From the NCBI GenBank assembly GCA_949288955.1, contig CASEMS010000002.1, positions 6,490 to 70,489 of the forward strand: a stretch of 64,000 bases of DNA, read 5' to 3'. Positions 1 to 33,408 of the stretch are shown piece after piece. The notes beneath the pieces were generated by a model. That model saw nothing but the letters and a program-made list of their open reading frames with translations, ran no database searches and had not been told where the DNA came from. Both the position numbers and the translations under genes were made by a program. Source of the DNA: an uncultured Lentisphaeraceae bacterium. GTDB taxonomy: Bacteria > Verrucomicrobiota > Kiritimatiellia > RFP12 > DVOR01. The first letter of the stretch is position 1; every line of letters begins with the position of its first letter.

Positions 1-195
1 GTAACGGAAGGGCATGGGGCGCTCCTTAGGCAAGCAGGTCGCACGCGACGGCGGCGGCCCAGAGGAGGGTGAAAAGAACCCGGACGGCGCGGCACCGCTC
101 CGGGTCGTGAATCTCGATGAAGTGTCCGCGCACGCTGCGCAGGATGTCGACGAGCCCGTCGAAGGCTTGGCAGGGGAGTGCGCGCAGGCGACCGC

Positions 196-1230
196 TCACT
201 TGGCCTCCAACGCCCTCACCTTGGCCTCCAAATCGGCGACCTTCTTCTTGAGCTTCTCAAGGATACGCGGGAAGAGGAGCGTCTCGGCGAACTTGCGTTT
301 GGGGATGGCGGGCGTGCCGGCGACGTACTCACCGGAGGGGACATCCTCCTTGACGCCGGCCTGGGGGGCCACCTGCGCGCGTTCGTGGACGGTGAGATGC
401 CCGGAGACGCCAGCCTGCGACCAGATGAGCGCGCCGGTCTCGATCTTCGCGCTCCCGGCGATGCCCGCTTGGGCGATAATGCCGACGAAGGGCGCAATCT
501 GCACGTTGTGGCCGATCTGGACAAGGTTGTCGATCTTCACGCAGTCGCCAATGCGGGTGCGACCGAAACGGGCGCGGTCGACACAGGTATTGGAACCGAT
601 CTCGACGTCATTCCCGATCTCGACGATGCCGACCTGCGGGACCTTGGTGATGACCGGCCCTGTGGGGCCGATCTCCACCGTGTAGCCATACCCATCCGTG
701 CCAATCTTAACACCGGCGTGCAAGATGACGCGATCGCCAAGCACGCAGGACTCGCGGATGTTCACCTGCGGATAGAGATGGCAGCCGCGGCCGATCTTGA
801 CGTGCTGGGCGATGAAGACCTGACCGTCGATGACCGTGTCGTCGCCGATGGAGGCGCCATCCTCGATGACCGTGTAGGGCCCGATGTAGAGATTCTTGCC
901 GAGGGTCACGCCCTCACCGATGACGGCGGTGGCGTGGATGCCCGGTTCGCGGACGACAGGCTTGGGCCCGAAGATGGGCGCAAGGGAGGCGAACGCCTTG
1001 TTGGGGTCGTCCACGCGGATAAGAGTGGCAGGGCACTCACCCTCGTAATCGCGGGCAACGAGGACGGCGGTGGCCTTGGTGTCACGCATCTGCGGGGCGT
1101 ACTTCTGGTTGGCCAGGAAGGAGACATCCCCCTCGCGCGCCTCCAAGAGGCTCGCCATCGCGTGGATCTCTGTCTCGCCGTCGCCCTCAAAGGTGCCATT
1201 GACGGCCTTTGCGACCTTACTGAGCTTCAT
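196..1230 (-). CDS. lpxD: UDP-3-O-(3-hydroxyacyl)glucosamine N-acyltransferase LpxD
   Basis: 344 aa; left-handed beta-helix hexapeptide repeats (IGxxxxIG...), LpxD-type N-terminal domain, C-terminal coiled tail; start overlaps upstream gene stop. Confidence 0.9.
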   Translation of the reverse strand: MKLSKVAKAVNGTFEGDGETEIHAMASLLEAREGDVSFLANQKYAPQMRDTKATAVLVARDYEGECPATLIRVDDPNKAFASLAPIFGPKPVVREPGIHATAVIGEGVTLGKNLYIGPYTVIEDGASIGDDTVIDGQVFIAQHVKIGRGCHLYPQVNIRESCVLGDRVILHAGVKIGTDGYGYTVEIGPTGPVITKVPQVGIVEIGNDVEIGSNTCVDRARFGRTRIGDCVKIDNLVQIGHNVQIAPFVGIIAQAGIAGSAKIETGALIWSQAGVSGHLTVHERAQVAPQAGVKEDVPSGEYVAGTPAIPKRKFAETLLFPRILEKLKKKVADLEAKVRALEAK

Positions 1231-2962
1231 CGGGCGCTCCTTCGGGCACAGGCTCTTGCACGGGCGCGTGGGGCTCCGACTCGGCGGGAGCGGCTTCCGG
1301 CGCAGGCTCGGGGGGCACCTCGGCGACCGGTTCCGCAGGGGCGGCCTCTGGCGCGGGGGGCTCGACCGACTGCCCCGCGGGCGTCTCGTCCTCCGGCGCG
1401 GGCGCGGGCACTTCCTCCGCGGGCGCGGGTGCTTCCTCCGCGGGCTTGGCCTCGGCCTCGTCGGCCGCGCGTTCGCGCTTCATCTCCTCGGGGAGCTTGC
1501 GGAACTTGGGGTTGTCCTCGGGAAGGGCCAGGACGCCATTGTAATACTCGATGATGTGCCCCTTCTGGAAGAGGAAGGCGATCTGCCGGGCGACGACGGC
1601 GATGTCCATGTCCGCCAGCTCCGTCTTGAGCGCGGCGAGCAACTCGGCACGGGTGCAGAGCGGATGGGCGGTGACATAGTCCAACGCCGCCTTGATCTCG
1701 CGCACGGCGTGCTCGGCGGTGAAAGGCGCGGGCACCATGTTGGCGACGAACTCCGGGCCACGCGCATCGTTGCCGCGGAAGAGCGTGAACTTGCGGTGGC
1801 GGAAGGCGCCGCGCAGGGCGAAGAAGAGCGAGCGCGGGTAGCGTTGCTCGTCGCGAAGCGTGTACTTCAACAGAAGGCGAAGCGGCAGGGAGGGGGAGGT
1901 CTGCGCCAGGGAGACGGGCAAGCAGACGTGCTTGGCCTTGGCGACGAGCGTGGGGAGGATGTCGCGGCGGAAGATGGCCTCGGCCTGATCGCGGTTGTAG
2001 GCAGGGCGGGTCTCGGCAGGCGTCTCCTCGGCGGGGGCCTCCGGCGCGGGTTCGGCGGGGGCCTCGGCGCCCTCGGCGGCGGAGGCGGGCTCCGGCGCGG
2101 CGGGCGTCTCGGCGGGCTTGGCCTTCAGGCGATAGACGGTCTGCTTGGTGACGGACTGCTTCCAGGCCTCGATGGACTCGGGGTCGGTGTGCATCTCAAG
2201 GGTGCGCAAGTAATCCCGCTCGGGCATCCCGGCGCGGGCGGCGAGTTCGGCCACGCGATGACGGTAGCTGTGGTGGTTGGGCGCGCCGACCCATTCGCCG
2301 GTGAGCGTGCATTTGGCCACGCGCGGGAAGGTGCCGGATGGCGGGTCGCACGGTTCCTCGGCCACATCGAAGAAATCCTCCAGATGGTGCGCAAGGGCGT
2401 GTTGGACGACCTCGGCCTCGCTGAGGGCCACCAAGCCGCACGTCTTGCACGACCAGAACTGGACTTCCGTCTCGGGCTTGGCCTCGAAGCGCACAAGGCA
2501 GGCCTGCGGATTCTCCAGGAAGAGATTGACGAACTTCTTGACCGGGAAGGCGACGTGCGTGCCCTGAAGGGTCTTGATGATGACGCCCAGGTTCTTCTGG
2601 TTGGGAAGGATGCGGATCTCGGCGTCGAGCGGCTTGACAGGCTCGCGGCGCTCAAAGGGGCGCCCACCTTCGCGGCGCGGCGCACGGGGACGCTCCCCCT
2701 CGGCACCCTCACGGCGCGGACGGCGCTCGCCCTCGGGGCCTTCGCGGCGGGGACGGCGGGGCGGACGGCCCTCGGCGTCGCGGTCGCGGCGGGGGCGACG
2801 GTCGCGGGAATCGCCGCCCTCACGGCGGGGACGCTCCTCGCGGCCGGTGCGCTCATCGTAACTCTTGGCCTGGTATCGGCTGACATACTCGTCGGCGGAC
2901 TTACGGGCCCAAGCGGGGGCGAAGTCGAAACCGAGGCTCTCGGGGGTGTCTGCGTCGCTCAT
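1217..2962 (-). CDS. hypothetical protein with Arg/Gly-rich N-terminal region, C2H2-like zinc-finger motif and Pro/Ala/Glu-rich tail
   Basis: 581 aa ORF, codon usage consistent; motif C-x2-C-x12-H-x3-H (SCKTCGLVALSEAEVVQHALAHH); RPRREG repeats at N-term; PAE-rich low complexity at both ends; 3' end overlaps lpxD start by 14 nt. Confidence 0.6.
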   Translation of the reverse strand: MSDADTPESLGFDFAPAWARKSADEYVSRYQAKSYDERTGREERPRREGGDSRDRRPRRDRDAEGRPPRRPRREGPEGERRPRREGAEGERPRAPRREGGRPFERREPVKPLDAEIRILPNQKNLGVIIKTLQGTHVAFPVKKFVNLFLENPQACLVRFEAKPETEVQFWSCKTCGLVALSEAEVVQHALAHHLEDFFDVAEEPCDPPSGTFPRVAKCTLTGEWVGAPNHHSYRHRVAELAARAGMPERDYLRTLEMHTDPESIEAWKQSVTKQTVYRLKAKPAETPAAPEPASAAEGAEAPAEPAPEAPAEETPAETRPAYNRDQAEAIFRRDILPTLVAKAKHVCLPVSLAQTSPSLPLRLLLKYTLRDEQRYPRSLFFALRGAFRHRKFTLFRGNDARGPEFVANMVPAPFTAEHAVREIKAALDYVTAHPLCTRAELLAALKTELADMDIAVVARQIAFLFQKGHIIEYYNGVLALPEDNPKFRKLPEEMKRERAADEAEAKPAEEAPAPAEEVPAPAPEDETPAGQSVEPPAPEAAPAEPVAEVPPEPAPEAAPAESEPHAPVQEPVPEGAPDEAQ

Positions 2963-2974
2963 GTGCGCGCTCCT

Positions 2975-4927
2975 TTAGGCCTGCCCTTGGGCGACGGCGG
3001 CCAAAAGGCCACCGGCAAGGAGAAGGCGTTTCTGACGGTCGGACAGGTCGGTCACGACGTCGAACGTGGTGTTGTTGGAAAGGTCGGTGACGGTGGCGCG
3101 CCCATCTCCGGCGATGGCGGCGCGAAGCCCCTCGATGCGCAACGGCGCGCCTTGCGACACGCGGTCGTAATCCGCCGGATCGGCAAAGACGAAGGGGACG
3201 ATGCCAAAGTTGATGAGGTTGGCGCGATGGATGCGCTCGATGCCTTTCGCGATGACGGCGCGGACGCCCAGGAACATGGGGCAGAGCGCGGCGTGCTCGC
3301 GGGAGGAACCTTGACCGTAGCTCTCGCCGGCGAGGATGACGTTGGCCTTGCCGGCGTCGCGGTTGGCCACGGCGGCGGCGTAGAAGCCGGAATCGGTGTG
3401 CTCGAAGACGTACTTGGCGTACTCGGGGATGTTGGAACGGTATTTCAGGCGCGCGCCGGCGGGCATGATGTGGTCGGTGGTGATTTTGTCGCCCACCTTG
3501 ATGACGGCCACGCCGTCAAGCGTCTCGGGCAGGGGCTGGCCGGGGGGCACCTGACCGATGTTGGGGCCACGGCGGATCTCGGTGCCGGGGACGCCCTGTC
3601 CGGCGGTGTCGCGGTAGAGGAACATCCCGTCGTCGATGGTGAAGCGCTCCGGCATCGGCACGGCGGGAACCCCAAGGGCGCGCGGATCGGCGAAAGCCCC
3701 GGCGAGCGCGCTGGCGGCGGCGGTCTCGGGGGAGACGAGATAGACCTTGGCGGACTGCGTGCCGGAGCGCCCCTCGAAGTTACGGTTGCTCGTGCGCAGG
3801 CAGACGGCGTCGGTGCTCGGGCTCATGTGCGCGCCGATGCAGAACCCGCAGGCATTCTCAAGGATCCGGCACCCGGCGGCGATGAGGTCGCCCAAGAGCC
3901 CCTCATCGGCGAGCATCCGCACCACCTGCTTGGAGCCGCAGGCAATACCGACCTCGACGTCGGGGTGGACCTGCTTGCCCTTCAGCAGGAGGGCGACGGT
4001 CTTGATGTCCCGATACGAGGAGTTGGTGCAGGAGCCAATCATGATCTGGTTCACGCGCTGGCCCACGTGCTCGGCGATGGTCTCGATGTTGCCGGGATTG
4101 TGGGGGGCGGCGGCGAGCGGCTCAAGCGTGGAGAGATCCAACTCCCACGTCTCGTCGTAATCCTCGCCATCGGCCTCAAGCGGCACCCAATCCTGCTCGC
4201 GGCCCTGGGCCTTGAGGAAGGCGCGGGTGACGGCGTCGGAGGGGAAGACGGAGGTTGTGACACCGAGCTCCGCGCCCATGTTGGCGATGGTGGCGCGGCT
4301 GGGCACGTCCAGATCGGCCAAGGCGGGGCCGTAGTACTCGAAGATCTTGCCGACGTTGCCCTTGGAACCGAAGCGACGGAGGACGGCCAGGATGACATCC
4401 TTCGCCGAGACGCCGGGGGTCAGACGGCCGGTGAGGCGGATGCCCACCACCTTGGGCCAGGCGATGTAGTAGGGCCCGCCGCCCATCGCCACCGCCACAT
4501 CGATGCCACCCGCGCCGATGGCCACCATGCCCAGGCCGCCACCCGTGGGCGTGTGGGAGTCGGAGCCGATGAGCGTCTTGCCCGGCTTGCCGAAGCGCTC
4601 CAAGTGGAGCTGATGGCAGATCCCGTTGCCGGGCTTGGAGTAGACAACGCCATATTTCTTGGCGACGCTCTGGAGATAGTCATGGTCGTCGGCGTTCTCG
4701 AAGCCGATCTGCACGGTGTTGTGATCCACGTAGCTGACGGAAAGCTCGGTCTTCACCCGGTCGATGCCCATGCTCTCGAACTGGAGATAGGCCATCGTGC
4801 CGGTGGCGTCCTGCGTCAGGGTCTGGTCGATGCGGAGGCCGACCTCCCGCCCCACGACGGGCTCGCCGGAGACCAAATGCGCACGGAGGATCTTTTCGGT
4901 GACGTTCATAAGGGGAAAGGACTCCAA
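2975..4927 (-). CDS. aconitate hydratase (short mitochondrial/Bacteroidetes-type aconitase family)
   Basis: 650 aa; aconitase catalytic motifs IGSCTNSSY, CGFCIG, swivel-domain GQGSSREHAAL. Confidence 0.85.
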   Translation of the reverse strand: MESFPLMNVTEKILRAHLVSGEPVVGREVGLRIDQTLTQDATGTMAYLQFESMGIDRVKTELSVSYVDHNTVQIGFENADDHDYLQSVAKKYGVVYSKPGNGICHQLHLERFGKPGKTLIGSDSHTPTGGGLGMVAIGAGGIDVAVAMGGGPYYIAWPKVVGIRLTGRLTPGVSAKDVILAVLRRFGSKGNVGKIFEYYGPALADLDVPSRATIANMGAELGVTTSVFPSDAVTRAFLKAQGREQDWVPLEADGEDYDETWELDLSTLEPLAAAPHNPGNIETIAEHVGQRVNQIMIGSCTNSSYRDIKTVALLLKGKQVHPDVEVGIACGSKQVVRMLADEGLLGDLIAAGCRILENACGFCIGAHMSPSTDAVCLRTSNRNFEGRSGTQSAKVYLVSPETAAASALAGAFADPRALGVPAVPMPERFTIDDGMFLYRDTAGQGVPGTEIRRGPNIGQVPPGQPLPETLDGVAVIKVGDKITTDHIMPAGARLKYRSNIPEYAKYVFEHTDSGFYAAAVANRDAGKANVILAGESYGQGSSREHAALCPMFLGVRAVIAKGIERIHRANLINFGIVPFVFADPADYDRVSQGAPLRIEGLRAAIAGDGRATVTDLSNNTTFDVVTDLSDRQKRLLLAGGLLAAVAQGQA

Positions 4928-5749
4928 TCAGGCGGCTTTGCGTGCCAGCCAACGACGCTTCAGGGCAAACCAGAAAGGCGCCACGTAAACGAAGAAGAGG
5001 GTCATGGGAACCAGATAGCAACAGCAGACCACCGCCGTCTTCGGCCCAACGAAGAGCCCAAGGAAGGCAAGCACCCCGATGAACTGCCCAAGCGGCGTGT
5101 TCGTCGGCTTCGGGTACTTGAAGGGCGACACCTGCAAGAGAAGGCAAATCACGCAGTTCGCGTACATCACCCACGAGAGCCACCCGCCGTCCTGCAACGT
5201 CAGCCACCCCGGCAACGGATGGTCCAGCCCATAGCCGCGCTTCCACGCCTCGATGAGCAGGACGATGCCCGCCAGGCAGAGCGCGTTCACCGTGATGGGC
5301 ATCCCCGTGTAGCCGCTCATGCCGTGGTCCTCGTCCACCACCTTGAAACGCGCCAGGCGGATGGCCCCGGAGAGGACGATTGCGATGGACAGGAGGGCCC
5401 CCACCGGATGGAGCGTCGGCGCCGGTGCCGAGAAGTCGTGGAAGAGATAAAAGTACATCAGCATCGCCGGCGCGATGCCGAAGGCCGTGATGTCCACGAA
5501 GGTGTCGAACTCCGCACCGAAGGCCGTCGAGGCCTTCAGCATCCGCGCCATCGTGCCGTCGATGCCATCGAGGATCATCGCGCCGAGGATGAGGAGCGCG
5601 CCCCAGTAGAAGTCGCCCATCGCGGAGCAGAGCACGCTCATCAGACCGCAGACCAAGGCGCCCGAGGTGATGGAGTTCACGAACCCCACCCGATTGGCAT
5701 GGGCCGAGGGCCGCTTGATATGGAGAATCTTCCGCATGGCGCGCCTCAT
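4928..5749 (-). CDS. pssA: CDP-diacylglycerol--serine O-phosphatidyltransferase (CDP-alcohol phosphatidyltransferase family)
   Basis: 273 aa multi-TM; DG(x2)AR...G...D(x3)D CDP-OH-P-transferase motif (DGIDGTMARM...GAEFDTFVD); immediately downstream of psd. Confidence 0.8.
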   Translation of the reverse strand: MRRAMRKILHIKRPSAHANRVGFVNSITSGALVCGLMSVLCSAMGDFYWGALLILGAMILDGIDGTMARMLKASTAFGAEFDTFVDITAFGIAPAMLMYFYLFHDFSAPAPTLHPVGALLSIAIVLSGAIRLARFKVVDEDHGMSGYTGMPITVNALCLAGIVLLIEAWKRGYGLDHPLPGWLTLQDGGWLSWVMYANCVICLLLQVSPFKYPKPTNTPLGQFIGVLAFLGLFVGPKTAVVCCCYLVPMTLFFVYVAPFWFALKRRWLARKAA

Positions 5750-6465
5750 TTCCGCTTGGCGATGACCGTCTCACCCGCGCGCACCGGGTCGCCCGGCTTC
5801 ACGCAGACCTCCACGCGGTCGGCCGGCAGCCAGATGTCCATGCGGCTGCCGAACTTCATCATGCCAAGGATGCCGCCGCGCTTCACCGGCTGCCCCTGCT
5901 CCAACCAATAGATCACGCGCCGGACGATCGGCCCCGTGATTTGCTTGTGCAGGCAGCGCAACCCATCCTTGTCCTCCACCACCACGATGGAATGCTGGTT
6001 ATAGAGGCTCGAACGCTCATCCATCGTCAGCAAATGCTTCCCGTGACGGTACTCGCATTGCTTCACCGTGCCGCCGATGGAAAGACGGTTCACGTGCACA
6101 TGGAGCGGCGAGAGGAAGGTGGAGATGCGCACCGCGCGCTGACCGGGGAAGAACTCCTTGACCACCGCGCTCGCCGGCGAGCCGTCATCCTCCGTCACAT
6201 ACTGCACCGAGCGCACCGTGCCCTCCGCGCCCGAGACGATGTTCTCCTCGCCCTCCGGCGGCGTCCGCTTCGGATTGCGGAAGAACCACGCCATGAAGGC
6301 CGCGAAGACCAGGCACACCGCCAGCCACGCCGTCGCCACCCACGGCAACCCAAAGACCGGGCACAGCACGCACCCGCCGCCGACGCCCAACACCAAAGGC
6401 ACGACAATCAGCGGCCATCCGTTGCGGATAATCGCCTCCCGCTCACGTCTCTCGTTCTCGTACAT
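5746..6465 (-). CDS. psd: phosphatidylserine decarboxylase proenzyme (short archaeal-type Psd)
   Basis: 239 aa; N-terminal TM, Psd-related fold, FGS(R) self-cleavage-type motif; 4-nt overlap with pssA start. Confidence 0.75.
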   Translation of the reverse strand: MYENERREREAIIRNGWPLIVVPLVLGVGGGCVLCPVFGLPWVATAWLAVCLVFAAFMAWFFRNPKRTPPEGEENIVSGAEGTVRSVQYVTEDDGSPASAVVKEFFPGQRAVRISTFLSPLHVHVNRLSIGGTVKQCEYRHGKHLLTMDERSSLYNQHSIVVVEDKDGLRCLHKQITGPIVRRVIYWLEQGQPVKRGGILGMMKFGSRMDIWLPADRVEVCVKPGDPVRAGETVIAKRK

Positions 6466-6620
6466 CTCAAATCCGTCCTTCGCTCAGGTTGCGGGCCTCC
6501 GCCCACTTCGCCTAGCATTGTAGCAAACTCCCTCCGCCCGTGCACAAACGCCAGCCCCACTCAATGGCCCCCGGGGAGAAGGAAGACTAAGACGACCGCG
6601 CCCAAGGCGGACGCCCCACC

Positions 6621-6715
6621 CGCCGACGCTCGGTGGATCAGCCGCCGACGCAAGGAGACTTAGCCGCCGACGCTCGGTAGATCAGCCGCTGACGCTCGGT
6701 GGATCGGCGGCTGAT
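6621..6715. repeat. 22-bp minisatellite family (GGATCRGCSGCTGAYSCGAGGW-like), ~4 units
   Basis: tandem units cggtggatcagccgccgacg / gtagatcagccgctgacgctcg / gtggatcggcggctgatgg; same family at 16153, 33363, 39326, 49242, 59222. Confidence 0.7.
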
Positions 6716-6731
6716 GGTTGGGGCGTGCGCG

Positions 6732-6766
6732 ACCAAGCCTCCAAGCCTCCAACCTTCCAAACTTCC
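6732..6766. repeat. (CCAAGCCTC/CCAAACTTC)n 9-mer microsatellite
   Basis: ccaagcctccaagcctccaaccttccaaacttcc; same motif at 15981-16056 and 29225-29290. Confidence 0.7.
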
Positions 6767-6771
6767 GTTTG

Positions 6772-6850
6772 CGCGGGAGGCGAGGGCGGTAGGGAGCGGT
6801 CAGCGGGCGTCAGCCCGCAGAGCGACCGGCGGAGCCCGCAAGCCCTCCCG
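6772..6850. repeat. 77-nt palindromic module C (copy 1), 9-bp terminal inverted repeats GCGGGAGGC...GCC(C)TCCCG
   Basis: near-identical copies at 15897-15973 and 33257-33333; internal hairpin GCGGGC-loop-GCCCGC. Confidence 0.7.
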
Positions 6851-6872
6851 TTGCGTCTTCGCGGTCAAAACC

Positions 6873-9611
6873 TCAGACGCCGAGGGCGGCGTGGAGGGCG
6901 AGGGCGTTGGGGGCCATCACGCGGGCGGCGCGCCAGGGGCCGAAGTCGTGGAGTTTGGTGACGGCGGCGCACCAACGTTTCAGGGCGAAGTGTTTGTCCC
7001 GGGCGGAGGGGTCGTCCTGTCCCTTCACCTCCAGCACGACGGTCTCGCCCGAGGCGAGGCGCACGATGAAGTCGGGGATGTAGGTGTGGGCGAGGCCTTG
7101 GGAGACGTAGCGGATGCGCAGGCCGACGTGACGGTCGTTGCGGACGTAGGCCGACACCGCGTCCGCCTCCGCGAGCCAGGCGGCGACGGAGCGTTCCCAC
7201 GCGCTGTCGTAGACGGCGGCGGCGATCTGGCTTTTGGGGCCGGTGGGGGTGGGTTCCTTGGTGGTGTGCCAGGTGCGCATCCGGGCGGTGGAGAGGGTGG
7301 GCTGGCGGCTGTCGCGCACGATGGCGAGGTCTTGGCGTTCCTTGGGGGTCAGGTGGTCGAGCAGATGGCGGACGACCTGGCCCATCTGATAGGCGTAGGC
7401 CAGGCGGGCCTCGGGGGAGCCGAGGGCGGCCGTCTGCCAGAAGAGGTTCTCCTGCCAGTGGCATTTGCCGGAATCGATGAAGTCGGCGGCCAGGCGCACG
7501 AGTGCGGCGAAGAGGCGGGGCACGGCCATCTCGCGCCGTTTCCGGGCGAAGGCCGCGCTCTCCAGGAGGGCTTTGGCCATGGTGAAGAGGAGGGTCTGCC
7601 GGCGCGGCGCGGCCTGGGCGATGTCAAGGGTGTAGAGGTCGGCGCGCTCCACCTTCATCCACTCGCCGAGGGTCTGGGCCATCTGGGCGGAGACGGTGAG
7701 GGTCGGCTCCAGAATCAGCTCCGGGACGTCCTTGAGGGAGAGTTCCGGCGCGGCGACGTCGTCGATGCGGAGGATGTTGGGCCAGGCGATCTCGGCGGTC
7801 TCGCGGCCCGGCGCCACGGCGATGGGATAAGTCGGGGCGGGGGGCTCGCCGCCGCCGGCCCCTTCCGTGGGGAGGAAGCGGAAGGGAACGCCAAAGACCT
7901 GCACGTATTCCGGGCGGAGGAGGCCCGTCTCGGGGTCGACGTCGTAACTCACGCGGCGGAGGCCTCGGCCGATGACCTGCTCGCAGAGGAGCTGGCTGGT
8001 GAAGGCGCGCAGGCCGAGGATGTGGGTGACGGTGCGGGCGTCCCACCCCTCCGAGAGCATGGCCACGGAGATGAGGTTGGCGACCGCCGCGCCCGGCTGG
8101 CCTTCCTTGCCCACGGTGGCGACGCGCCTGCGGAGGGCCTCCCCCGCCGCGCCGCTCTTCTCAAGCACTTTGGAATCGATGCGCAGGACGCGCTCGGGCT
8201 CGCACAACGTCTCCGCGCCGCCCAGGGTGGCCCCGCCGCCGGAGAGGAAGTGGCGTTCGACGCGCGCGGCGGTGGTGGTGTTGTTCACCACGCTGATGAG
8301 CACGGGCGGGACGGGGACGCGGCACGCCCGCCAGAGGTCGGCGGTCTTGCGCCAGTCGGCGGCGAGGAGGGAGTAGGCGTTGGCCAGCGCGGGGGGCAGG
8401 GGGGCGGCGGGGTCGGCCGCCTCGTCGATGGCCTCCTTGATGCCCGGCGCCTCGTAGAGGTCGTAGAGGTCGGGGAGGTTCGTCTCGGGGTTGATGGGGC
8501 CGGCGGCGTCGCAGGGCATACGGGGGGTCTTGACCAGTCCGGCCTCGATGCCGTCGTTCAGGCCGAAGTCGCTGACCACCCAGCCGAAGAGGAAGTCCTC
8601 CTTGCTCATCTTGCCCGAGGGGATGAAGGGGGTGGCGGAGAAGTCGTGGCAGCGCAGGATGGGGGCCACGCGGTGGATACGGTCGAGGCCGCCCACCCAG
8701 ACGGTGTGCTCGTCCTTCTCCTCGCCCACGCCGCGGTAGTCGCCGGCCTTGGCCTTGGGCGGGAGGCGCCAGGCGTGGTGGGCCTCGTCGTTGAGGACGA
8801 GGATGCGAGGGGCCTTGGCCAGCTCCGTCCCCAGCACGGCACGGGCGTAGGCGCGGTCGCCCAACGGCCCGCGCTTGTCCACGCCCCGCCGTTTGCGCAC
8901 CTTCTCGGCGTCCTCCCACTGCATGGCCTGCCAATTGAGGATGCGCACGCGCGCCTGCGCCAGGCCCAACTGGAGCGACTCCGGCACCAGGCCGCCGCCA
9001 TACTCCGCGCCGCCCGCGGCGGGATCCAGCCCCGACAGGCGGTCGCGCACCGTGAGGTTGGGCGCCACGACGAGGACATCGCGGCAGAAGCGTTTGTCCT
9101 GGGGGTGGGCGACTTTGTTGCAGGCGTGCCAAGCGATGAGCATGGCCATCACCTTCGTCTTGCCGCCGCCCGTGCAGAGTTTGGTGCAGACGCGCTCGAA
9201 GGGGCCGCCGTCGCCGCGCAGACGCCCCTCGCCCTCGCCCCACAGCCCCTGACGCTCCGCCTCCGGCCCCTCCGTCAGCCAGATGAGCGTCTCGATGGCC
9301 TCCAACTGGCAGAAAAAGGGGCGCGGCTCCATCAACCCCTCCTCCTCCCCCACCCCATGCCACCGCCCCAGCAACTGGCGTGTGACAGGCGTGACGCCCG
9401 GCCAGCCGGCCTCGCGCCAGGCCCGCACCCGCCCGCGGATGACCTCCACCGCGCCGAGGGGCACGAACTCGCCGTCGCCCCGGCTCTTGGTGTTGAACTT
9501 GGTGTAGCCCGGCGCCCGGCGGCCCTCCGTCCTCGTCAGCGAGAGCGTCCCCGGGCGATGCTCCCAGTGCCAGGCCGGCTCGGCGTAGGGACTGTTCAGG
9601 ATCAGGCTCAT
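6873..9611 (-). CDS. res: Type III restriction enzyme Res subunit (SF2 helicase + PD-(D/E)xK endonuclease)
   Basis: 912 aa from MSLILNSPYAEP (GGGAGG SD 8 nt upstream; the ORF track extends further upstream in-frame); Walker A LCTGGGKT, DEAH box LNDEAHH, helicase motif VI, C-terminal PD...EVK nuclease motif (YIPDF...LEVKG); ATGA overlap with mod stop. Confidence 0.9.
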   Translation of the reverse strand: MSLILNSPYAEPAWHWEHRPGTLSLTRTEGRRAPGYTKFNTKSRGDGEFVPLGAVEVIRGRVRAWREAGWPGVTPVTRQLLGRWHGVGEEEGLMEPRPFFCQLEAIETLIWLTEGPEAERQGLWGEGEGRLRGDGGPFERVCTKLCTGGGKTKVMAMLIAWHACNKVAHPQDKRFCRDVLVVAPNLTVRDRLSGLDPAAGGAEYGGGLVPESLQLGLAQARVRILNWQAMQWEDAEKVRKRRGVDKRGPLGDRAYARAVLGTELAKAPRILVLNDEAHHAWRLPPKAKAGDYRGVGEEKDEHTVWVGGLDRIHRVAPILRCHDFSATPFIPSGKMSKEDFLFGWVVSDFGLNDGIEAGLVKTPRMPCDAAGPINPETNLPDLYDLYEAPGIKEAIDEAADPAAPLPPALANAYSLLAADWRKTADLWRACRVPVPPVLISVVNNTTTAARVERHFLSGGGATLGGAETLCEPERVLRIDSKVLEKSGAAGEALRRRVATVGKEGQPGAAVANLISVAMLSEGWDARTVTHILGLRAFTSQLLCEQVIGRGLRRVSYDVDPETGLLRPEYVQVFGVPFRFLPTEGAGGGEPPAPTYPIAVAPGRETAEIAWPNILRIDDVAAPELSLKDVPELILEPTLTVSAQMAQTLGEWMKVERADLYTLDIAQAAPRRQTLLFTMAKALLESAAFARKRREMAVPRLFAALVRLAADFIDSGKCHWQENLFWQTAALGSPEARLAYAYQMGQVVRHLLDHLTPKERQDLAIVRDSRQPTLSTARMRTWHTTKEPTPTGPKSQIAAAVYDSAWERSVAAWLAEADAVSAYVRNDRHVGLRIRYVSQGLAHTYIPDFIVRLASGETVVLEVKGQDDPSARDKHFALKRWCAAVTKLHDFGPWRAARVMAPNALALHAALGV

Positions 9612-12148
9612 CGCGCGGCCTCCCGGGGCGCCCCGTCCTCCGTCAGCGCGAAGACGCGGAGGCTCTCGAAGCCCTTGTCGTCGATGATCTTCACCGCCAC
9701 CTTCCGGTTCTCCCCCGGCCTGAAGGGCAGGCTCTTCGTCCCCTGATAGGCCCGCAGACGCTCCGGCGCGATCGTCCCCCGCAGGGTCGCCTCCAGCCGC
9801 CGCCAGACATCCGCGCCGGGGAAGAGGCACTGCTCCGGGTTCACGCACCGCCCATCGTAGTTGCCATCGACCATCCACATGGCGATGTTCGCCGCGCCGC
9901 GCGAGGTCATCGTCTGCCGCACCGGGTCGTAATAGTCGAAGCCCAGCACCTCCGCCGTCAGCATCCCCTCCGCGTCACGCACCAAGGCCACGTCCGGCTG
10001 CCCCACCAACGTGAAGCTTTGGTTGCGGAACTGCCGCTTCAGCAGGTCGGTCATCTGCAGATCCGTGTTCATCTGCACGGTCAGGACGCGTGCGTAGCCC
10101 ACCTTGCTGCGTGCGAGCGCCTCCGAGGCCTCGGCCGTGAACTGGAAGGCCGCGAAGACGAGCAGGGCCGGGCGGGGGCGCACGTCGTCCGCCTCGTCCA
10201 GCGCGTTGTGCACCACCGCCAGGCTCATCGGCGCCGACGCGCTCCCCAGGCAGACCAACGCCTCCTGCCCCTCCTCCGTCACCCCCCGCGCATGGAACCA
10301 CGTGTGCGCCCCCGAGACCTCCAGCGACCGGAAGCGCAGCCGCTCCTCCCCCGACCCCGTCCGGATCCCCGAGGCCCGCAGCTCCGCCACCCACTCCTCC
10401 AGATTCCGCCCCGCCGCCATCCCCTCCTCCGGCCGCGCCTCCAGCAACGGCTCGATCACCGGCTCCGGCAGCGCCTCCACCGTGAAGGGGCCCGTAACAC
10501 GCACCCGACCCTTCTCGACGATCGGCCGGTCCCACAGCGTCTCCTCCCGCGACGGCACGCCATTGGCGATGTCGCCCAACATCACGTGCGGCACCGTCTT
10601 GTAGACCAGCCCGCCGTCCACACCCCGCCCCTCGTCCGCCAGCTTGTACCAATCGTAAGCCTGCGTAATCAGCCGCCGCTTCGCCAACGCCAAGGCCACC
10701 CGACTCGTGTCGATCGTGATCCAACGCCGCCCCCACTCCTCCGCCACCACCGCCGTCGTCCCACTCCCGCACGTCGGGTCCAACACCAAGTCCCCCGGAT
10801 CCGTCGTCATCAGGATGCAACGTTGGATGACCTCACGCGATGTCTGGACAACATAGACTTTGGAGTCCGCCCGACTCTGTATGCCGCCGACATCATCCCA
10901 GAGGTTCGAGATACTCATCCAGTTGAAATCGTCCAAGTAACGGACATAGTTTAATGTGTTCGCACTGGCTTCCAAACGATTGGCTGCGGCCAACCGTTGC
11001 AATCCTTCCAATGTCGTCTTAAAGGTGCCATTGCCAGGCGAATATTTCCGCCCCCCAAACTCAAACTCGCGCACATCTCCGTTCCCCGCAGAACGGCGAG
11101 ACGTCAAATTGTCTAACCGATACACTCGGCTTCCCGTTGGCCTATCTTCATAAACGAACTTACTCCCTGTTCGTCTCTCCCACTCACTGATTGGCATACG
11201 CTCCCCAGACTCTAATTCTATGTTACGGTACTTACTCGCCCCCTCTCCCCCGAAAGTCTTCTCCTTGAAGAGCTCGTGATACTTTACCTTTTCCCGGTCC
11301 TTCGCATACCAAAGGAGATAGTCTCCTGCACGATCAAGCGTACCAGACTCGTTTCCACTCGTCGTGGTATAGGAAATCATGGAGACGCAATTGTCGGGGC
11401 CGAAGACCTCATCGAGGAGGCAACGGACGCGGTGGACGTTCTCCATCGAGATTTGGACGAAGATGGAGCCGGTGGGGGCGAGGAGGTCGCGCATGAGGAT
11501 GAGGCGGTCGCGGAGGTAGGAAAGGTAACTGTGGACACCCCATTTCCAGGTATCGCGGAAGGCCGTGACCATCTCCGGCTCGGCGGTGAGGTCCTCGTCC
11601 TTGCCGTCCTTCACGTCGCGCTTGTGGATGGAGGGCATGAAGTTGGAGCCGAACTTGATGCCGTAGGGCGGGTCCATGTAGATGCACTGCACCTGGCCCG
11701 CCAGGCGCTCATGGCGGAGCAGGGCGTTCATCACCAGCAGGGAATCGCCCGCGATCAGGCGGTTGGTCCACTGCATGGTGTGGTTGTAGGCATAGATCTC
11801 CTCCGTGCGCAGACGGCGGCGGTCGGCCTCCGGCAGGCCGAAGAGGTCCAGCTGCACCGGGTCCCGGTCTTGGTCGGCGAAGGTGGCTTTGAGGATGCGC
11901 AGGGGATTGACGGCCTCGTGCTGGTGGATGGTGAAGGTCGGCACCTCCACCGCGTCCTCGCCCTTCTGGAACCACACCAGGCGCGGGATGTCGTGCGCGT
12001 CGATTTCATAGACCTCCGGGGACCCCGTCTCACGGACGCCGCCTGTCTCGTTCGCCGCCGGGAGCACGGCGCGTTTGTGCTCCGGGTGCAGATACGTATC
12101 CGCCGCGTCGCCCTGCGGTTCATCGACACCGTGTCTCTTGCCAGCCAT
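9608..12148 (-). CDS. mod: Type III restriction-modification Mod subunit, beta-class N6-adenine DNA methyltransferase with extended C-terminal domain
   Basis: 846 aa from MAGKRHG (GGAGGG SD upstream; ORF track start at 12241 is an upstream in-frame extension); motif IV DPPYG precedes motif I TCGSGTT (beta order); ~280 aa beyond the typical Mod C-terminus. Confidence 0.9.
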   Translation of the reverse strand: MAGKRHGVDEPQGDAADTYLHPEHKRAVLPAANETGGVRETGSPEVYEIDAHDIPRLVWFQKGEDAVEVPTFTIHQHEAVNPLRILKATFADQDRDPVQLDLFGLPEADRRRLRTEEIYAYNHTMQWTNRLIAGDSLLVMNALLRHERLAGQVQCIYMDPPYGIKFGSNFMPSIHKRDVKDGKDEDLTAEPEMVTAFRDTWKWGVHSYLSYLRDRLILMRDLLAPTGSIFVQISMENVHRVRCLLDEVFGPDNCVSMISYTTTSGNESGTLDRAGDYLLWYAKDREKVKYHELFKEKTFGGEGASKYRNIELESGERMPISEWERRTGSKFVYEDRPTGSRVYRLDNLTSRRSAGNGDVREFEFGGRKYSPGNGTFKTTLEGLQRLAAANRLEASANTLNYVRYLDDFNWMSISNLWDDVGGIQSRADSKVYVVQTSREVIQRCILMTTDPGDLVLDPTCGSGTTAVVAEEWGRRWITIDTSRVALALAKRRLITQAYDWYKLADEGRGVDGGLVYKTVPHVMLGDIANGVPSREETLWDRPIVEKGRVRVTGPFTVEALPEPVIEPLLEARPEEGMAAGRNLEEWVAELRASGIRTGSGEERLRFRSLEVSGAHTWFHARGVTEEGQEALVCLGSASAPMSLAVVHNALDEADDVRPRPALLVFAAFQFTAEASEALARSKVGYARVLTVQMNTDLQMTDLLKRQFRNQSFTLVGQPDVALVRDAEGMLTAEVLGFDYYDPVRQTMTSRGAANIAMWMVDGNYDGRCVNPEQCLFPGADVWRRLEATLRGTIAPERLRAYQGTKSLPFRPGENRKVAVKIIDDKGFESLRVFALTEDGAPREAAR

Positions 12149-12347
12149 AAAGGCGCCCTCCACGTCTGTTCCGGATCGGGCGTCCGCTAAGAGCCGTGAG
12201 AGAAACAGACGGGAGGGCATACGCACCACGGCGCATGCCACACCCGAACGTTTGCTCTCTCAATGTTTAGCGGACTTTGATCCGAGCAAATCATTCGTGC
12301 GTGCTGCACGTTGACCCCTGCGGCTACTCCCGCAGGCGATGTATTGT

Positions 12348-15128: not shown

Positions 15129-15133
15129 CAAGA

Positions 15134-15208
15134 TGGCTCCGAAGGCAGGATTCGAACCTGCGACCAAGTGATTAACAGTCACCTGCGCTACCACTGCGCC
15201 ACTTCGGA
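15134..15208 (-). tRNA. tRNA-Asn (anticodon GTT)
   Basis: 75 nt; cloverleaf TCCGAAG acceptor, anticodon loop CTGTTAA, T-loop GGTTCGAATCC, encoded CCA. Confidence 0.9.
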
Positions 15209-15228: not shown

Positions 15229-15304
15229 TGGTAGCGGGTGAGGGGATCGAACCCCCGACACGCGGATTATGATTCCGCTGCTCTACCGACTGAGCTAACC
15301 CGCC
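15229..15304 (-). tRNA. tRNA-Met (anticodon CAT; elongator Met or lysidine-modified Ile2 cannot be distinguished here)
   Basis: 76 nt; acceptor GGCGGGT/ACCCGCT (G1-U72), anticodon loop ATCATAA, T-loop GGTTCGATCC, encoded CCA. Confidence 0.85.
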
Positions 15305-15404
15305 ATGTCGGGAAAACGCCGCATAGAATAGCACATGCCGTCCCCCTCTGCAAGCACTTTTTTTCGTTTTGTGAGAGACCCGAAGCACGACGGGGGGGGG
15401 GAAA

Positions 15405-15850
15405 AACCGCAGATTGCGCGGATTGAGGCGGATTTGGGGGTCGGCTACCGCCGACAGGACTGCCAGGGGGGAGACCACCAAGGACACGAAGGGGTGCACA
15501 GAGGAACACGAAGCACGACGGGGGACACAATCACAAAGGACACAACGGACACAAAGGGGAGCGCGGGCATGGCCCGCGCAGGACGGCCAGGAGGGAACCG
15601 CAGATTGCGCGGATTGAGGCGGATTTTGGGGTCGGCTACCGCCGACAGGACTGCCAGGGGGGAAAGACCACCAAGGGCACGAAGGAGGGCACAGAGGGAC
15701 ACGAAGCACGACGGGGGGACACAATCACAAAGAACACAACGGACACAAAGGGGAGCGCGGGCATGGCCCGCGCAGGACGGCGAGGGAGGAACCGCAGATT
15801 GCGCGGATTGAAGCGGATTTGGGGTCGGCTACCGCCGACAGGACTGCCAG
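15405..15850. repeat. composite tandem repeat, ~191-194 bp unit x2.3 (module A + module B)
   Basis: unit starts at 15405, 15596, 15790 (aaccgcagattgcgcggattgaRgcggattt...); module A has hairpin GTCGGC-TACC-GCCGAC and GCGGATT direct repeats; module B is T-free, purine/C-rich (cacgaag, cacaa motifs), ends in palindrome GCGCGGGC-ATG-GCCCGCGC. Confidence 0.85.
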
Positions 15851-15896
15851 AATGCCTGACAAGTACAGCACGGCGAGAGGGACTCACTTGGGCAGC

Positions 15897-15973
15897 GCGG
15901 GAGGCGAGGGCGGTAGGGAGCGGTCAGCGGGCGAAGCCCGCAGAGCGACCGGCGGAGCCCGCAAGCCTCCCGC
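15897..15973. repeat. 77-nt palindromic module C (copy 2)
   Basis: GCGGGAGGC...GCCTCCCGC terminal inverted repeats; internal GCGGGC-GAA-GCCCGC hairpin. Confidence 0.8.
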
Positions 15974-15980
15974 GCAACGG

Positions 15981-16056
15981 TCAAATCCCCCCAAGCCTCC
16001 AAACCTCCAAACCTCCAAACCTCCAAACTTCCAAACTTCCAAACTTCCAAACTTCC
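15981..16056. repeat. (CCAAACCTC/CCAAACTTC)n 9-mer microsatellite, ~8.5 units
   Basis: ccaagcctcc aaacctcc(aaacctcc)x2 (aaacttcc)x4. Confidence 0.85.
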
Positions 16057-16152
16057 AAACTTCCCGCGCCCCCTTGCGTCTTTGCGGTTCCTTCTAGGAT
16101 AGCACGAACGAGAGACGGGGCACGGCGTTTTTCCTCTGGGGGCTGGCCCTCG

Positions 16153-16220
16153 GAGGATCGGCGGCTGATCCACCCCGGGGCGGCGGCTGATCCACCTTGG
16201 ATTGGCCGCCGATCCAAAGT
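16153..16220. repeat. 22-bp minisatellite family, ~3 units
   Basis: ggaggatcggcggctgatccacccc ggggcggcggctgatccacctt ggattggccgccgatccaaag. Confidence 0.7.
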
Positions 16221-16365
16221 TATCAACAACCCCACCCTCCCGGCGGCCCCCGCGGAAAGCGTTTCGACAAGCGCGCGAGGCGCACATCGGGGGCCTTCGC
16301 GCGCTCCCCTCGCCGGCTGGGCGCGCAGGAGGTTTTCCCCGAAGAGGCCCGGCACGTTCGAGATT

Positions 16366-16394
16366 TTGCGCACGAGGGGCTTTTTTGTTATAGT
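16366..16394 (+). promoter_or_regulatory. sigma70-like promoter TTGCGC-17-TATAGT, predicts leaderless folP mRNA
   Basis: -10 ends 9 nt before the folP ATG at 16404, so the transcript start would be within ~3 nt of the ATG; no SD present. Confidence 0.5.
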
Positions 16395-16403
16395 CTTCTG
16401 CAA

Positions 16404-17252
16404 ATGCAGAAGCGAGCGCCAACGATTTGGGATTGCCGGGGGCGGGCCTTGGAGTTTGGCCCTCCCTTGGTGATGGGCATTCTCAACGTCACGTCGGACT
16501 CCTTCTTCGCGGACAGCCGCGTGGAGGGGGTGCGCGCGGTCGTGGCGCGTGGGGAGGCCTTGCTCGCGGCGGGGGCGGGGATCCTTGACGTGGGGGGGGA
16601 GTCGACGCGCCCGGGGGCCGCGCCGGTCTCGCCGGAGGAGGAGGCGGCGCGGGTGGTGCCGGCGATCCGCGCGTTGGCGGCGGCCTTCCCGGAGGCCGTG
16701 CTTTCGGTGGACACGCGGCACACGGCGGTGGCGCGGGCGGCGGTGGCGGCGGGGGCGCACATCGTGAACGACGTGGCCGGCTGCGCGCCGGAGCCGGGGA
16801 TGTGGGAGTTGGTGGCGGAGACGGGGGCGGGCTACGTGATGACCCATGCGCGCGGGACGCCCGAGACGATGGACGCGCTCACGGACTACGCGGACGTGGT
16901 GGGCGAGGTGGAGGCGGCGCTGCGGGAGGCGACGGCGCGCCTGGTGGCGCTGGGCGCGCGGCGGGGGCAGATCGCCTGGGATCCCGGACTGGGCTTCGCG
17001 AAGACGCACGCGGACTCGTGGCGGCTGTTGGGGGCGACGGCGCGCTTCGCGGCGTCGGGCCACGCGGTGGTGGTCGGGGCCTCGCGCAAACGTTTTCTGG
17101 GGGGGGAGACGCAGGGGCGCGGGCCGGCGAGCGTGGGGGCGGCGCTCTGGGCGGCCTCGCAGGGGGCGGCGGCGGTGCGCGTGCACGACGTGGCGGAGAC
17201 GGCGGAGGCCATGGGGGCCTTCCTCAAGGCAAGGGGGGCGGCGGATGTTTGA
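16404..17252 (+). CDS. folP: dihydropteroate synthase
   Basis: 282 aa from MQKRAPTIW; pterin-binding motifs GILNVTSDSFFADSR, DVGGESTRPGA, NDV; 8-nt overlap with cdaA. Confidence 0.9.
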   Translation: MQKRAPTIWDCRGRALEFGPPLVMGILNVTSDSFFADSRVEGVRAVVARGEALLAAGAGILDVGGESTRPGAAPVSPEEEAARVVPAIRALAAAFPEAVLSVDTRHTAVARAAVAAGAHIVNDVAGCAPEPGMWELVAETGAGYVMTHARGTPETMDALTDYADVVGEVEAALREATARLVALGARRGQIAWDPGLGFAKTHADSWRLLGATARFAASGHAVVVGASRKRFLGGETQGRGPASVGAALWAASQGAAAVRVHDVAETAEAMGAFLKARGAADV

Positions 17253-29138: not shown

Positions 29139-29170
29139 TGTGCGCACCGCGCACATCAGACGCGGAAGTT
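29139..29170. repeat. perfect 12-bp inverted repeat TCTGATGTGCGC-acc-GCGCACATCAGA at the uxuA stop
   Basis: hairpin without T-run; followed by inverted and direct copies of the CCAAAC 9-mer repeat. Confidence 0.7.
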
Positions 29171-29290
29171 TGGAGACTTGGATGCTTGGCCTGCGCTCCG
29201 CGCCCCCCGGCGTCCCGCAGGAGTTCCAAACAGCCAAGCCTCCAAACCTCCAAGCCTCCAAACTTCCAATCAGCCAAGCCCCCAAACTTC
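29160..29290. repeat. 9-mer (CCAAGCCTC/CCAAACTTC) repeat block with one inverted copy followed by direct copies
   Basis: ggaagtttggagacttggatgcttggc (inverted) ... ccaaacagccaagcctccaaacctccaagcctccaaacttccaatcagccaagcccccaaacttcc (direct). Confidence 0.7.
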
Positions 29291-29293
29291 CCC

Positions 29294-32974: not shown

Positions 32975-33256
32975 TGGAACGGCGAGGGAGAGATCACAAA
33001 GGGCACGAAGGGGGACACGGAGGAGCACGAAGCACGACGGGGACACAATCACAACGGGCACAAAGAACACAAAGGGGGCGCGGGCGTGGCCCGCGCGGGA
33101 CGGGATGGACGGTGAGAGGAAACCGCGGATTGCGCGGATTGAAGCGGATTGGGGGTCGGCTACCGCCGACAGGACTGCCAGAGGAAAAGACCACAGAGGG
33201 CACGAAGGGGGACACGGAGGAGCACGAAGTATGGAGGGGGACTCACAACGGGCAGC
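32975..33256. repeat. module B + module A + partial B of the composite repeat (single copy)
   Basis: same modules as 15405-15850: cacgaag/cacaa-rich T-free block ending GCGCGGGCGTGGCCCGCGC, then aaccgcggattgcgcggattgaagcggatt...gtcggctaccgccgac. Confidence 0.8.
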
Positions 33257-33333
33257 GCGGGAGGCGAGGGCGGTAGGGAGCGATCAGCGGGCGAAGCCCG
33301 CAGAGCGACCGGCGGAGCCCGCAAGCCTCCCGC
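33257..33333. repeat. 77-nt palindromic module C (copy 3)
   Basis: differs from copy 2 by a single G>A. Confidence 0.8.
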
Positions 33334-33362
33334 GCAACCTTGCGTCTTTGCGGTTCCCCCAA

Positions 33363-33408
33363 GGAGGATCGGCCGCCGAGCCGAGGAGAATCGGCCGCCG
33401 AGCCGAGA
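33363..33408. repeat. 22-bp minisatellite family, 2 units
   Basis: ggaggatcggccgccgagccga ggagaatcggccgccgagccgag. Confidence 0.65.

Follow-up and report, generated by a model that had tools for sequence, protein, structure and literature searches.

A strain-variable intergenic region upstream of folP and a tRNA operon in an uncultured Kiritimatiellae bacterium is probably a mosaic of short interspersed repeats

Between tRNA-Met and folP on a contig of an uncultured Lentisphaeraceae bacterium (assembly GCA_949288955.1, contig CASEMS010000002.1, positions 6,490–70,489; this whole 64-kb stretch is referred to here as the window) lies a region of about 0.9 kb that is packed with short repeats (positions 15305–16220 of the window). 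An original prediction, made from the sequence alone, described it as a composite of four module types and as either a transcribed array of structured RNAs or a family of non-autonomous elements resembling miniature inverted-repeat transposable elements (MITEs). Instead of one element, the region brings together at least six independent repeat families, named A to F. We consider it likely that it represents a strain-variable, non-coding mosaic of lineage-specific short interspersed repeats held between divergent promoters. Comparison of strains shows a change in the copy number of an 8-mer, a tandem duplication of 194 bp, internal deletions, and similarity between separate loci. The kind of structure is already known, with interspersed mosaic repeats such as the repetitive extragenic palindromes (REPs) and bacterial interspersed mosaic elements (BIMEs), BOX elements and MITEs being comparable, but the families themselves are previously undescribed in Kiritimatiellae.

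Repeat modules between tRNA-Met and folP

Modules were cut by hand and then searched with BLAST against the window, along with Tandem Repeats Finder (TRF) and a repeat finder (Table 1). Module A is 61 nt long and consists of three GCRGATT direct repeats 9–10 nt apart, the hairpin GTCGGC-TACC-GCCGAC, and AGGACTGCCAG. Its search pattern gives four matches in the window against 0.00 expected in shuffles, and BLAST places the copies at 15405, 15596, 15790 and 33121, with 95–100% identity and all on the plus strand. Module B is purine-rich and carries a degenerate repeat of 9–11 nt (GGRCACRAAGG; TRF reports a period of 9 inside its first copy at 15532–15557), followed by an 8-bp palindrome at its end, GCGCGGGC-ATG-GCCCGCGC, and a linker. 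The palindromic end agrees with the original prediction, whereas the description of B as thymine-free was too strong for a block that is T-poor, with 2–3 T per 130–133 nt. B occurs at 15466, 15665 and 32990, in part at 33182–33229, and as a fragment at 15381–15397, again always on the plus strand. Together, A and B form units of 191 and 194 nt, and the predicted array of 2.3 such units starting at 15405, 15596 and 15790 was recovered both by BLAST and by TRF (194-bp unit, 2.3 copies, 94% matches, 15405–15850).

Module C measures 81 nt and folds back on itself; its terminal inverted repeats are 11 bp long and perfect (GCGCGGGAGGC/GCCTCCCGCGC), both figures being slightly larger than the 77 nt and 9 bp first proposed, and it contains a nested hairpin, GCGGGC-GAA-GCCCGC. 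Its three copies in the window (6771–6844, 15895–15975 and 33255–33335) are 97–99% identical, and all lie on the plus strand. The microsatellite D had been described as a 9-mer, (CCAAACYTC)n, but both a regular-expression search and TRF return a period of 8, with nine units of CCAARCYT. Two further families, E and F, bring the four recognized module types to at least six. The E motif GCGTCTTYGCGG has three exact matches on the plus strand (6853, 16076 and 33342) and is placed after C or D at all three loci; allowing one mismatch raises the count to 12 matches, compared with 2.5 expected by chance. F corresponds to the predicted 22-bp minisatellite, and units of that length are indeed present, although at this locus two are direct and one is inverted, so that they form an inverted repeat with an 18-bp stem rather than a plain tandem array.

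Rather than being unique to the three loci named in the original prediction, the modules occur within the window at seven loci, all intergenic, and outside it both in sister strains and in two further metagenome-assembled genomes (MAGs). The proposed recurrence in a different order was found as A, B and C at 32986–33335 and as D, C and E at 6733–6864. F arrays number six in the 64 kb, with one more in the 9 kb beyond the window; copy counts cover about 64 kb plus flanks. All seven loci share the plus orientation irrespective of which way the flanking genes run (two-sided binomial p ~0.016, our own calculation). GC skew tracks gene orientation, and the replichore therefore cannot be assigned. 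F units lie on the plus strand in 18 of 20 cases. Their core starts with GATC in 17 of the 20 and with GATT in the other three, so in these head-to-tail units GATC sites recur about every two helical turns. Intrinsic terminators (49205 and 59175) directly precede two of the F arrays, and tRNA-Arg has an array just upstream.

The predicted lack of coding capacity was confirmed. One frame on the plus strand stays open for 264 codons across the region, as might be left by a degenerate protein-coding or repeat-protein gene in GC-rich, T-poor DNA. Against such a gene, the five open reading frames (ORFs) that cross the region gave no Pfam match at E ≤ 0.1, neither 191 nor 194 nt is divisible by three, so that the units shift the reading frame, strains differ by large rearrangements of whole modules and not by in-frame changes, and the ORFs overlap the tRNA genes or folP. 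A degenerate or repeat-protein gene is therefore next to inconceivable as the source of the region. The repeats also differ from other recognized arrays. The 22-bp and 8-bp arrays run head to tail without spacers and the 194-bp units are repeats throughout, unlike a CRISPR array. Pfam tables list no integrase or transposase anywhere in the 64 kb, and none bounds the array in the manner of an integron or insertion sequence (IS), two known structures; belonging to one of them would, by the original prediction's own account, have refuted it.

Alleles in sister strains and the flanking promoters

Scaffolds of sister strains were found via the FolP, PfkB and HU-like proteins of the window, and they derive from independent metagenome assemblies of several samples. 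Genes and promoter-proximal DNA are 98.7–99.1% identical between the window and strains L008 and L011, and the 15.4–16.2 kb locus has at least three to four alleles. In strain L011 (98.7% identical), the A-B-A-B tandem is present, and each copy has the substitutions that mark it in the window. Unlike in the window, ~65 nt are deleted so that the third A is truncated, E occurs once more behind C, and the 8-mer array is one unit shorter. Strains L006–L010 have no A, and instead carry B-palindrome-linker-B'-C-E-D (in a CCAAGCCT variant)-partial C-E-F; an additional deletion of ~45 nt distinguishes L006 from L007–L010. In L007, the B copy at 15 kb is 94% identical to the window's copy at 33 kb, compared with 88–89% to the window's own 15-kb copies, and this closer match to the 33-kb paralogue points to ectopic exchange or replacement, beyond local decay.

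The other two mosaic loci vary as well. At 6.6 kb, at least five alleles were counted among the window and six strains. In L008 and L009, two copies of a foldback element of ~215 nt, absent from the window, replace D-C at this locus, and the terminal inverted repeats of this element are the E motif (CCGCGAAGACGCG...CGCGTCTTCGCGG). At 33 kb, there are six alleles in seven strains, differing by deletions within A and B. The variable DNA ends at conserved promoter or gene flanks in every case. These observations bear out one half of the original proposal, a recombining composite as opposed to purely local slippage, through the strain alleles and the seven loci; as for the other half, a mobile composite, transposition is an inference.

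At the 15.4–16.2 kb locus, the flanks belong to two divergent transcription units. The original prediction correctly placed the complex between tRNA-Met and folP, but not in calling it downstream of the tRNAs: tRNA-Met and tRNA-Asn lie on the minus strand, and the complex is thus upstream of the tRNA operon, whose transcription runs leftwards, away from the repeats, to an intrinsic terminator at 15129–15099 (the sole convincing one in the promoter and terminator scan). The complex fills the divergent gap and is upstream of both units. A candidate tRNA promoter was recognized by eye on the minus strand (−10 TATTCT at 15325–15330, a 17-nt spacer, −35 TTGCAG at 15348–15353, and an A-tract at 15357–15375); it scores below the threshold of the promoter scan and is a candidate only. 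The whole of 15325–15375 is identical in L006–L011 and forms the left edge of the variable DNA, with sister strains departing from the window sequence from 15381–15404 onwards. On the other side, the folP upstream region (16221–16472) is near-identical across L006–L012 and includes a weak candidate promoter on the plus strand, also recognized by eye (TTGCGC at 16366–16371, a 17-nt spacer, and TATAGT at 16389–16394). A run of ten G residues at 15396–15405 could be slippage-prone; it is the same in L011 and stands some 20 nt upstream of the A-tract that belongs to the candidate tRNA promoter.

An assembly artefact, in which repeat reads were mis-joined or duplicated, was weighed against these alleles. 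The region is repeat-rich, and the short-read contigs L012, L025 and L026 end at or within clusters, as is expected of multi-copy repeats. The recurrence of the A-B-A-B tandem, including its copy-specific substitutions, in L011, an independent assembly from another sample, indicates that the tandem of the window is not an artefact, and module copies elsewhere are diverged (85–95% identity) and not identical. An artefact is accordingly very improbable. At or near repeat or tRNA sites, two contigs show changes of context, perhaps through rearrangement or a chimeric join there: L025 leaves the common sequence from ~16893, immediately after the upstream region of the N_methyl gene, where the other strains carry the B-A-C mosaic, and L028 has a wholly different gene context left of proS (1–8000).

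The genes of the window, which has a G+C content of 69.3%, are housekeeping genes (lpxD, aconitase, NAGLU, folP-cdaA-ybbR, ruvB, murD-like, purH, pfk, proS, HU and hisS). On the minus strand at 6873–12259, a protein of ~912 aa without a Pfam domain is encoded beside one of ~846 aa with an N6_N4 DNA methylase domain; the pair is conserved across all sister strains and could be a restriction-modification or defence pair. Next to the 33-kb mosaic, a truncated sbcD-like pseudogene is cut off exactly at the F repeats, and its remnant shrinks stepwise in sister strains, to ~250 nt in L023 and ~100 nt in L019–L024. SbcCD is a nuclease that cleaves DNA hairpins, which makes the decay of this gene beside a hairpin-rich cluster curious.

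Table 1 Features of the repeat complex, its flanks and the other repeat loci (window coordinates unless a strain scaffold is named)
Feature	Position	Strand	Evidence and details
tRNA-Asn	15134–15208	−	ARAGORN; Rfam tRNA match
tRNA-Met	15229–15304	−	ARAGORN; Rfam tRNA match; left boundary of the complex
Candidate tRNA-operon promoter	15325–15375	−	By eye from sequence
B fragment (GAAGCACGACGGGGG) running into G10 homopolymer	15381–15404	+	BLAST of B matches 15381–15397 (16–17 nt); start of the complex
A, copy 1	15405–15465	+	BLAST and repeat finder
B, copy 1	15466–15595	+	Composition A42 C33 G52 T3
A, copy 2	15596–15656	+	98% identity to copy 1
B, copy 2	15657–15789	+	95% identity to copy 1; B2 plus palindrome part 97.7%
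A, copy 3	15790–15850	+	Closes the 2.3-copy tandem
Single-copy linker, 44 nt	15851–15894		
C, 81-nt foldback	15895–15975	+	Perfect 11-bp terminal inverted repeats
D, 8-mer microsatellite (CCAARCYT)x9	15991–16062	+	Regular expression; TRF period 8 at 15998–16064
E, CTTGCGTCTTTGCGGTT	~16072–16092	+	Pattern search
F, 22-bp units, core GATCRGCSGCYGA	16150–16218		Two direct and one inverted; inverted repeat with 18-bp stem, z = −3.8
Single-copy folP upstream region with candidate promoter	16221–16472	+	Right boundary
folP	start 16473	+	Pfam Pterin_bind; product MGILNVTSD...
Third mosaic, F-D-C-E	6597–6864	+	TRF, BLAST, pattern search; F array 6597–6730, D 6733–6766, C with degenerate 3' inverted repeat 6771–6844, E 6853–6864
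D-type 8-mer arrays, inverted arrangement	29165–29291		Reversed units ~29165–29190, forward units 29226–29291
Second mosaic, B-A-B'-C-E-F	32986–33407	+	BLAST and repeat finder; B 32986–33103, A 33121–33181, partial B 33182–33229, C 33255–33335, E 33342–33353, two F 33362–33407
Truncated sbcD-like pseudogene	33411–33822	−	N-terminal Metallophos domain beginning MKLIHTSDWHLG; cut off at F repeats
F-type 22-bp array, up to ~9 units	39284–39483	+	
Further F-type arrays	49227–49338 and 59184–59383		
~215-nt foldback copies, L008	191–430, 509–736		
~215-nt foldback copies, L009	261–428, 507–735		

Hairpin conservation and possible functions

The hairpins of A and C are kept across diverged copies; covariation in module alignments was one of the checks that the original prediction had proposed. 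Twelve distinct copies of A fall into two stem haplotypes, GTCGGC/GCCGAC and GCGTGC/GCACGC, with the TACC loop and the following AGGAC invariant throughout. The 6-bp stem is 100% paired, with compensatory double changes in three of its six pairs, while in a control in which the partner was slid by 1–3 columns only 18–44% of positions paired. A flanking helix, GCRG/CUGC, alternates between A-U and G-U. Module C of the window folds as a rod on either strand (−58.3 kcal/mol, z = −4.4 on the plus strand; −54.2 kcal/mol, z = −3.8 on the minus strand). The C copies of the two MAGs also fold as this rod, but their outer stem is another one (GGCGCGAA.../...TTCGCGCC) and their apical stem has lost one base pair from both sides. 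For C, single-sequence folds were relied on, as MAFFT misaligned the diverged outer stems in the RNAalifold analysis of seven copies, and covariation was thereby understated. The F stem is at most ~5 bp long (TCRGC/GCYGA), and its R/Y position shows no departure from independence in 20 units (A-T 6, G-C 6, G-T 5, A-C 3). The compensatory patterns of A and C are real, and they fit an RNA hairpin and a single-stranded DNA hairpin alike. Their preservation suggests that hairpin formation is needed for propagation or for a role at the level of the host: the stems would be conserved through recognition of the hairpin in propagation, or through an RNA- or DNA-level host role such as protection of transcript ends.

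One such role would be a transcribed array of structured non-coding RNAs, with A and C as hairpin domains and the GGA/AGGA motifs of B, about every 10 nt, acting as a sponge resembling protein- or ribosome-binding sites. Besides the compensated stems of A and C and the many (A)GGA motifs of B, this is favoured by the outer helix of A, which uses A-U and G-U on the plus strand, while the opposite strand would have a C-A mismatch in place of G-U, and by the folding of the A+B unit, which compares better with shuffles on the plus strand (z = −3.1) than on the minus strand (z = −1.9). C, on the other hand, folds about equally on both strands. Rfam gave only tRNAs, both across the whole window at the gathering score and at 15250–16480 with E relaxed to ≤1. 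A scan of the complex for consensus promoters found no promoter-like site, and terminator-like sites were no more frequent than by chance. The orientation of modules relative to their neighbours is mixed (sense, antisense and divergent) in the window and the MAG loci, and the module content of a locus is not conserved even at 99% strain identity. An RNA array is thus unlikely.

The complex could also be an array of phased DNA sites bound by a protein of nucleoid-associated or regulatory type, or it could act as an insulator or in supercoiling, with copy number tuning expression as in a contingency locus. The short direct repeats have a phase of 9–11 nt, approximately one helical turn, the complex sits exactly between two divergent promoters of invariant sequence, and the G10 tract and the 8-mer of variable copy number lie near promoters. 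Host proteins that bind REP and BIME sequences include IHF and gyrase. Binding of these elements to several host proteins is reported (PMC2817692). Against an array of this type, the same modules are found whether the neighbouring genes converge, diverge or run in tandem, and share no neighbour between sites, the closest relatives are entirely without modules, the very different module sets found at near-identical genes argue against tuned regulation, and no candidate binding protein was identified. We give this explanation little credence.

Relatives of the species speak to the same question. Those with FolP at 74% and 65% identity (L013 and L016–18) keep the operon with no modules in 20 kb, and the intergenic region upstream of folP is only 258 nt in L013 and 145 nt in L016, without repeats. 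Relatives with RuvB at 95% and 92% identity (L032 and L034) keep the neighbouring operons, likewise with no modules in 20 kb. Since these relatives retain the operons and lack the modules, the complex is not a conserved regulatory feature of folP or the tRNAs, and a conserved folP/tRNA leader or regulatory element was rejected on these grounds.

Distribution, known counterparts and origin

In order to place the families beyond the species, we relied on an exact-match scan with a 25-nt core of A across 185,579 species-representative genomes, and only two uncultured Kiritimatiellaeota MAGs matched. By RuvB, the nearest relatives with a name are MAGs called 'Kiritimatiellae bacterium' and 'Candidatus Spyradenecus', at 89% identity. 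Metagenomes of the Joint Genome Institute (JGI) gave 0 matches to a stem-free A pattern and 0 to a C pattern, the latter slightly too strict, as it also misses the copies of the MAG contigs L001 and L002. The A pattern had 0 matches in the viral contigs of IMG/VR, and a literature search on repeats in Kiritimatiellaeota found nothing relevant. The two MAGs (contigs L001–L005) hold diverged copies of A, C, D and E with module order partly kept. Seven copies of A were found in them, including two with a diverged 5' part; in the other five, GCAGATT is repeated three times, and the hairpin and AGGACTGCCAG are shared as well. The microsatellite that comes after A varies, being (CACAGAG)n, (CACAAAG)n or else (GGACACGAAG)n, with arrays of the 8-mer CCAAACTT further on, and a second GGACTGCCAG appears after an inserted CACAGAG array. 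E follows each of the diverged C copies. This arrangement looks like a loose syntax with optional modules. The MAG loci carry A in both orientations within a few kb, and its orientation relative to flanking genes is inconsistent. Further repeat families occur in these MAGs (L001 690–760, L005 6270–6350, and L001/L004 3650–3860), including GGACC(A/C)CTATAGGGTC-type units and a TCATTGAAAACTTTTGCCCTTTTTACCGCTACTTTTCAATG inverted pair, and repeat-rich intergenic DNA seems general in this Kiritimatiellaeota clade. On this distribution, the complex is a patchily distributed, lineage-specific repeat load.

Among described elements, REPs and BIMEs come closest. REPs with GTAG or CGTC tags are stem-loops of 20–40 bp with a stem of 6–13 bp (rarely 5) and a short loop, and in the GTAG-tagged ones an unpaired GTAG, or a variant such as GTGG, stands at one end, the alternative tag being CGTC (PMC3733652). 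Opitutus terrae, a member of the Planctomycetes-Verrucomicrobia-Chlamydiae (PVC) group, has abundant tagged REP families, some of them tagged with GTGG (PMC3733652). The likeness to these elements (PMC2817692, PMC3733652) lies in short extragenic palindromic units at many intergenic sites; in composite, mosaic and partly tandem clusters that include other conserved motifs and vary between strains; and in sub-families with alternative complementary stems and G-T pairs within stems. F units resemble the GTAG-20 family of O. terrae, compared by the tag alone, in that many begin with GTGG and read GTGG-ATCRGCSGCYGA. Of the 20 units, nine carry GGTG ahead of the GATC core (reading GTGG-ATC), four GGAG and two AGTG, with the rest being single variants. 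The F arrays may therefore be REP-like with a GTGG tag, though their stem is only ~5 bp long and lacks significant covariation. REPs are expected at more than 100 copies per genome and outside genes; here all loci are extragenic, with the six F arrays in 64 kb. In BIMEs, REPs are regularly spaced and alternate in orientation, with conserved non-REP motifs between them. The complex shares the mosaic of conserved motifs, whereas all copies of A, B, C and E in the window lie on the plus strand, as do 18 of the 20 F units, head to tail. Lacking the alternating architecture, it resembles BIMEs in how it works and does not belong to them. In addition, A, B and D have no REP counterpart, with three phased direct repeats beside a hairpin and strand-asymmetric microsatellites, and there is no sequence homology to described REPs. 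Pfam tables of the 64-kb window and of the fetched flanks contain no gene for a REP-associated tyrosine transposase (RAYT, a Y1 transposase).

BOX elements of Streptococcus pneumoniae (boxA-boxB(n)-boxC; PMC3049150) share with the complex a modular build from short boxes with a variable number of internal modules, an intergenic position, the ability to fold, and variation between strains. They differ in unrelated sequence and phylum, and in a fixed A-B-C syntax as opposed to at least six module types in several orders with microsatellites mixed in. MITEs and foldback elements, for example Correia/NEMIS of Neisseria, RUP and ERIC, are small and non-coding, multi-copy and rod-folding, and so are C and the ~215-nt element of L008 and L009. 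The MITE-like character originally suggested is seen in the anatomy of C: 11-bp terminal inverted repeats, a length of 81 nt, a rod fold (z = −4.4), three copies in the window, more in the strains, and diverged ones in two MAGs. It does not extend to target-site duplications, as no direct repeat flanks the three C copies, nor to pairs of empty and filled sites, as no clean empty site was found and strains without C at 6.6 kb hold another element there. No parent IS is present in the fetched DNA, and E usually follows C on one side only. The short tandemly repeated repetitive (STRR) sequences of cyanobacteria and the MIRU-type minisatellites of mycobacteria are intergenic tandem repeats whose copy number varies between strains. 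Similar to these, the complex includes strand-asymmetric microsatellites of 7–10 nt and tandem arrays of tens of nucleotides in intergenic DNA, but its microsatellites are embedded among hairpin elements and the sequences are unrelated. By sequence, then, the complex does not appear to be a member of any described family.

A mosaic of this type could arise in the following manner. Modules with a hairpin or foldback structure (A, C, the ~215-nt element, and perhaps F) would have spread into intergenic DNA, either as elements that are non-autonomous or through ectopic recombination. Once clustered, they would be reshaped quickly by slipped-strand mispairing, as the change in 8-mer copy number suggests; by unequal crossing-over, which may have produced the 194-bp duplication of A+B; by ectopic exchange between loci; and by deletions whose end points suggest short homologies and so possibly a microhomology mechanism. 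Selection would tolerate the cluster only between two invariant promoters.

Several observations weigh against this account of a mosaic of short interspersed repeats. The strain alleles are taken from short-read metagenome assemblies, which may collapse or mis-join repeats, a concern tempered by the fact that alleles differ in module content and not in copy number alone, and by the reproduction of the tandem in L011. Compensatory changes come from two haplotype groups per element, in effect one event each, and have low power. That A and C transposed is something we infer, with no target-site duplication, clean empty site, transposase or RAYT gene within reach. The uniform plus orientation of the seven loci is not predicted by purely neutral, random insertion, and the conserved module order in the MAGs could indicate function.

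A more speculative idea takes A as the recognition site of an enzyme acting on single-stranded DNA (HUH/Rep-like or RAYT-like), and thereby as a new class of iteron-plus-hairpin mini-element in PVC bacteria. The features of A that lie behind it are direct repeats phased with the helical turn, a covarying 6-bp stem, an invariant TACC loop and the invariant AGGACTGCCAG. In the same proposal, A would seed the variable microsatellites on its 3' side, and the uniform plus orientation would reflect insertion that depends on the replication strand. Taken jointly, these claims are a long shot.

While the finding reveals no new kind of genetic system, it adds previously undescribed repeat families in Kiritimatiellae, a poorly studied uncultured gut lineage, and explains why short-read assemblies break in intergenic DNA. 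With several alleles at ~99% flank identity, the families are hypervariable markers for strain typing. The covarying hairpins offer a handle for finding the enzyme or the RNA-level function that maintains them, and the complex as a whole is a clear case from nature of intergenic DNA being remodelled by interspersed repeats that leave the promoters untouched.

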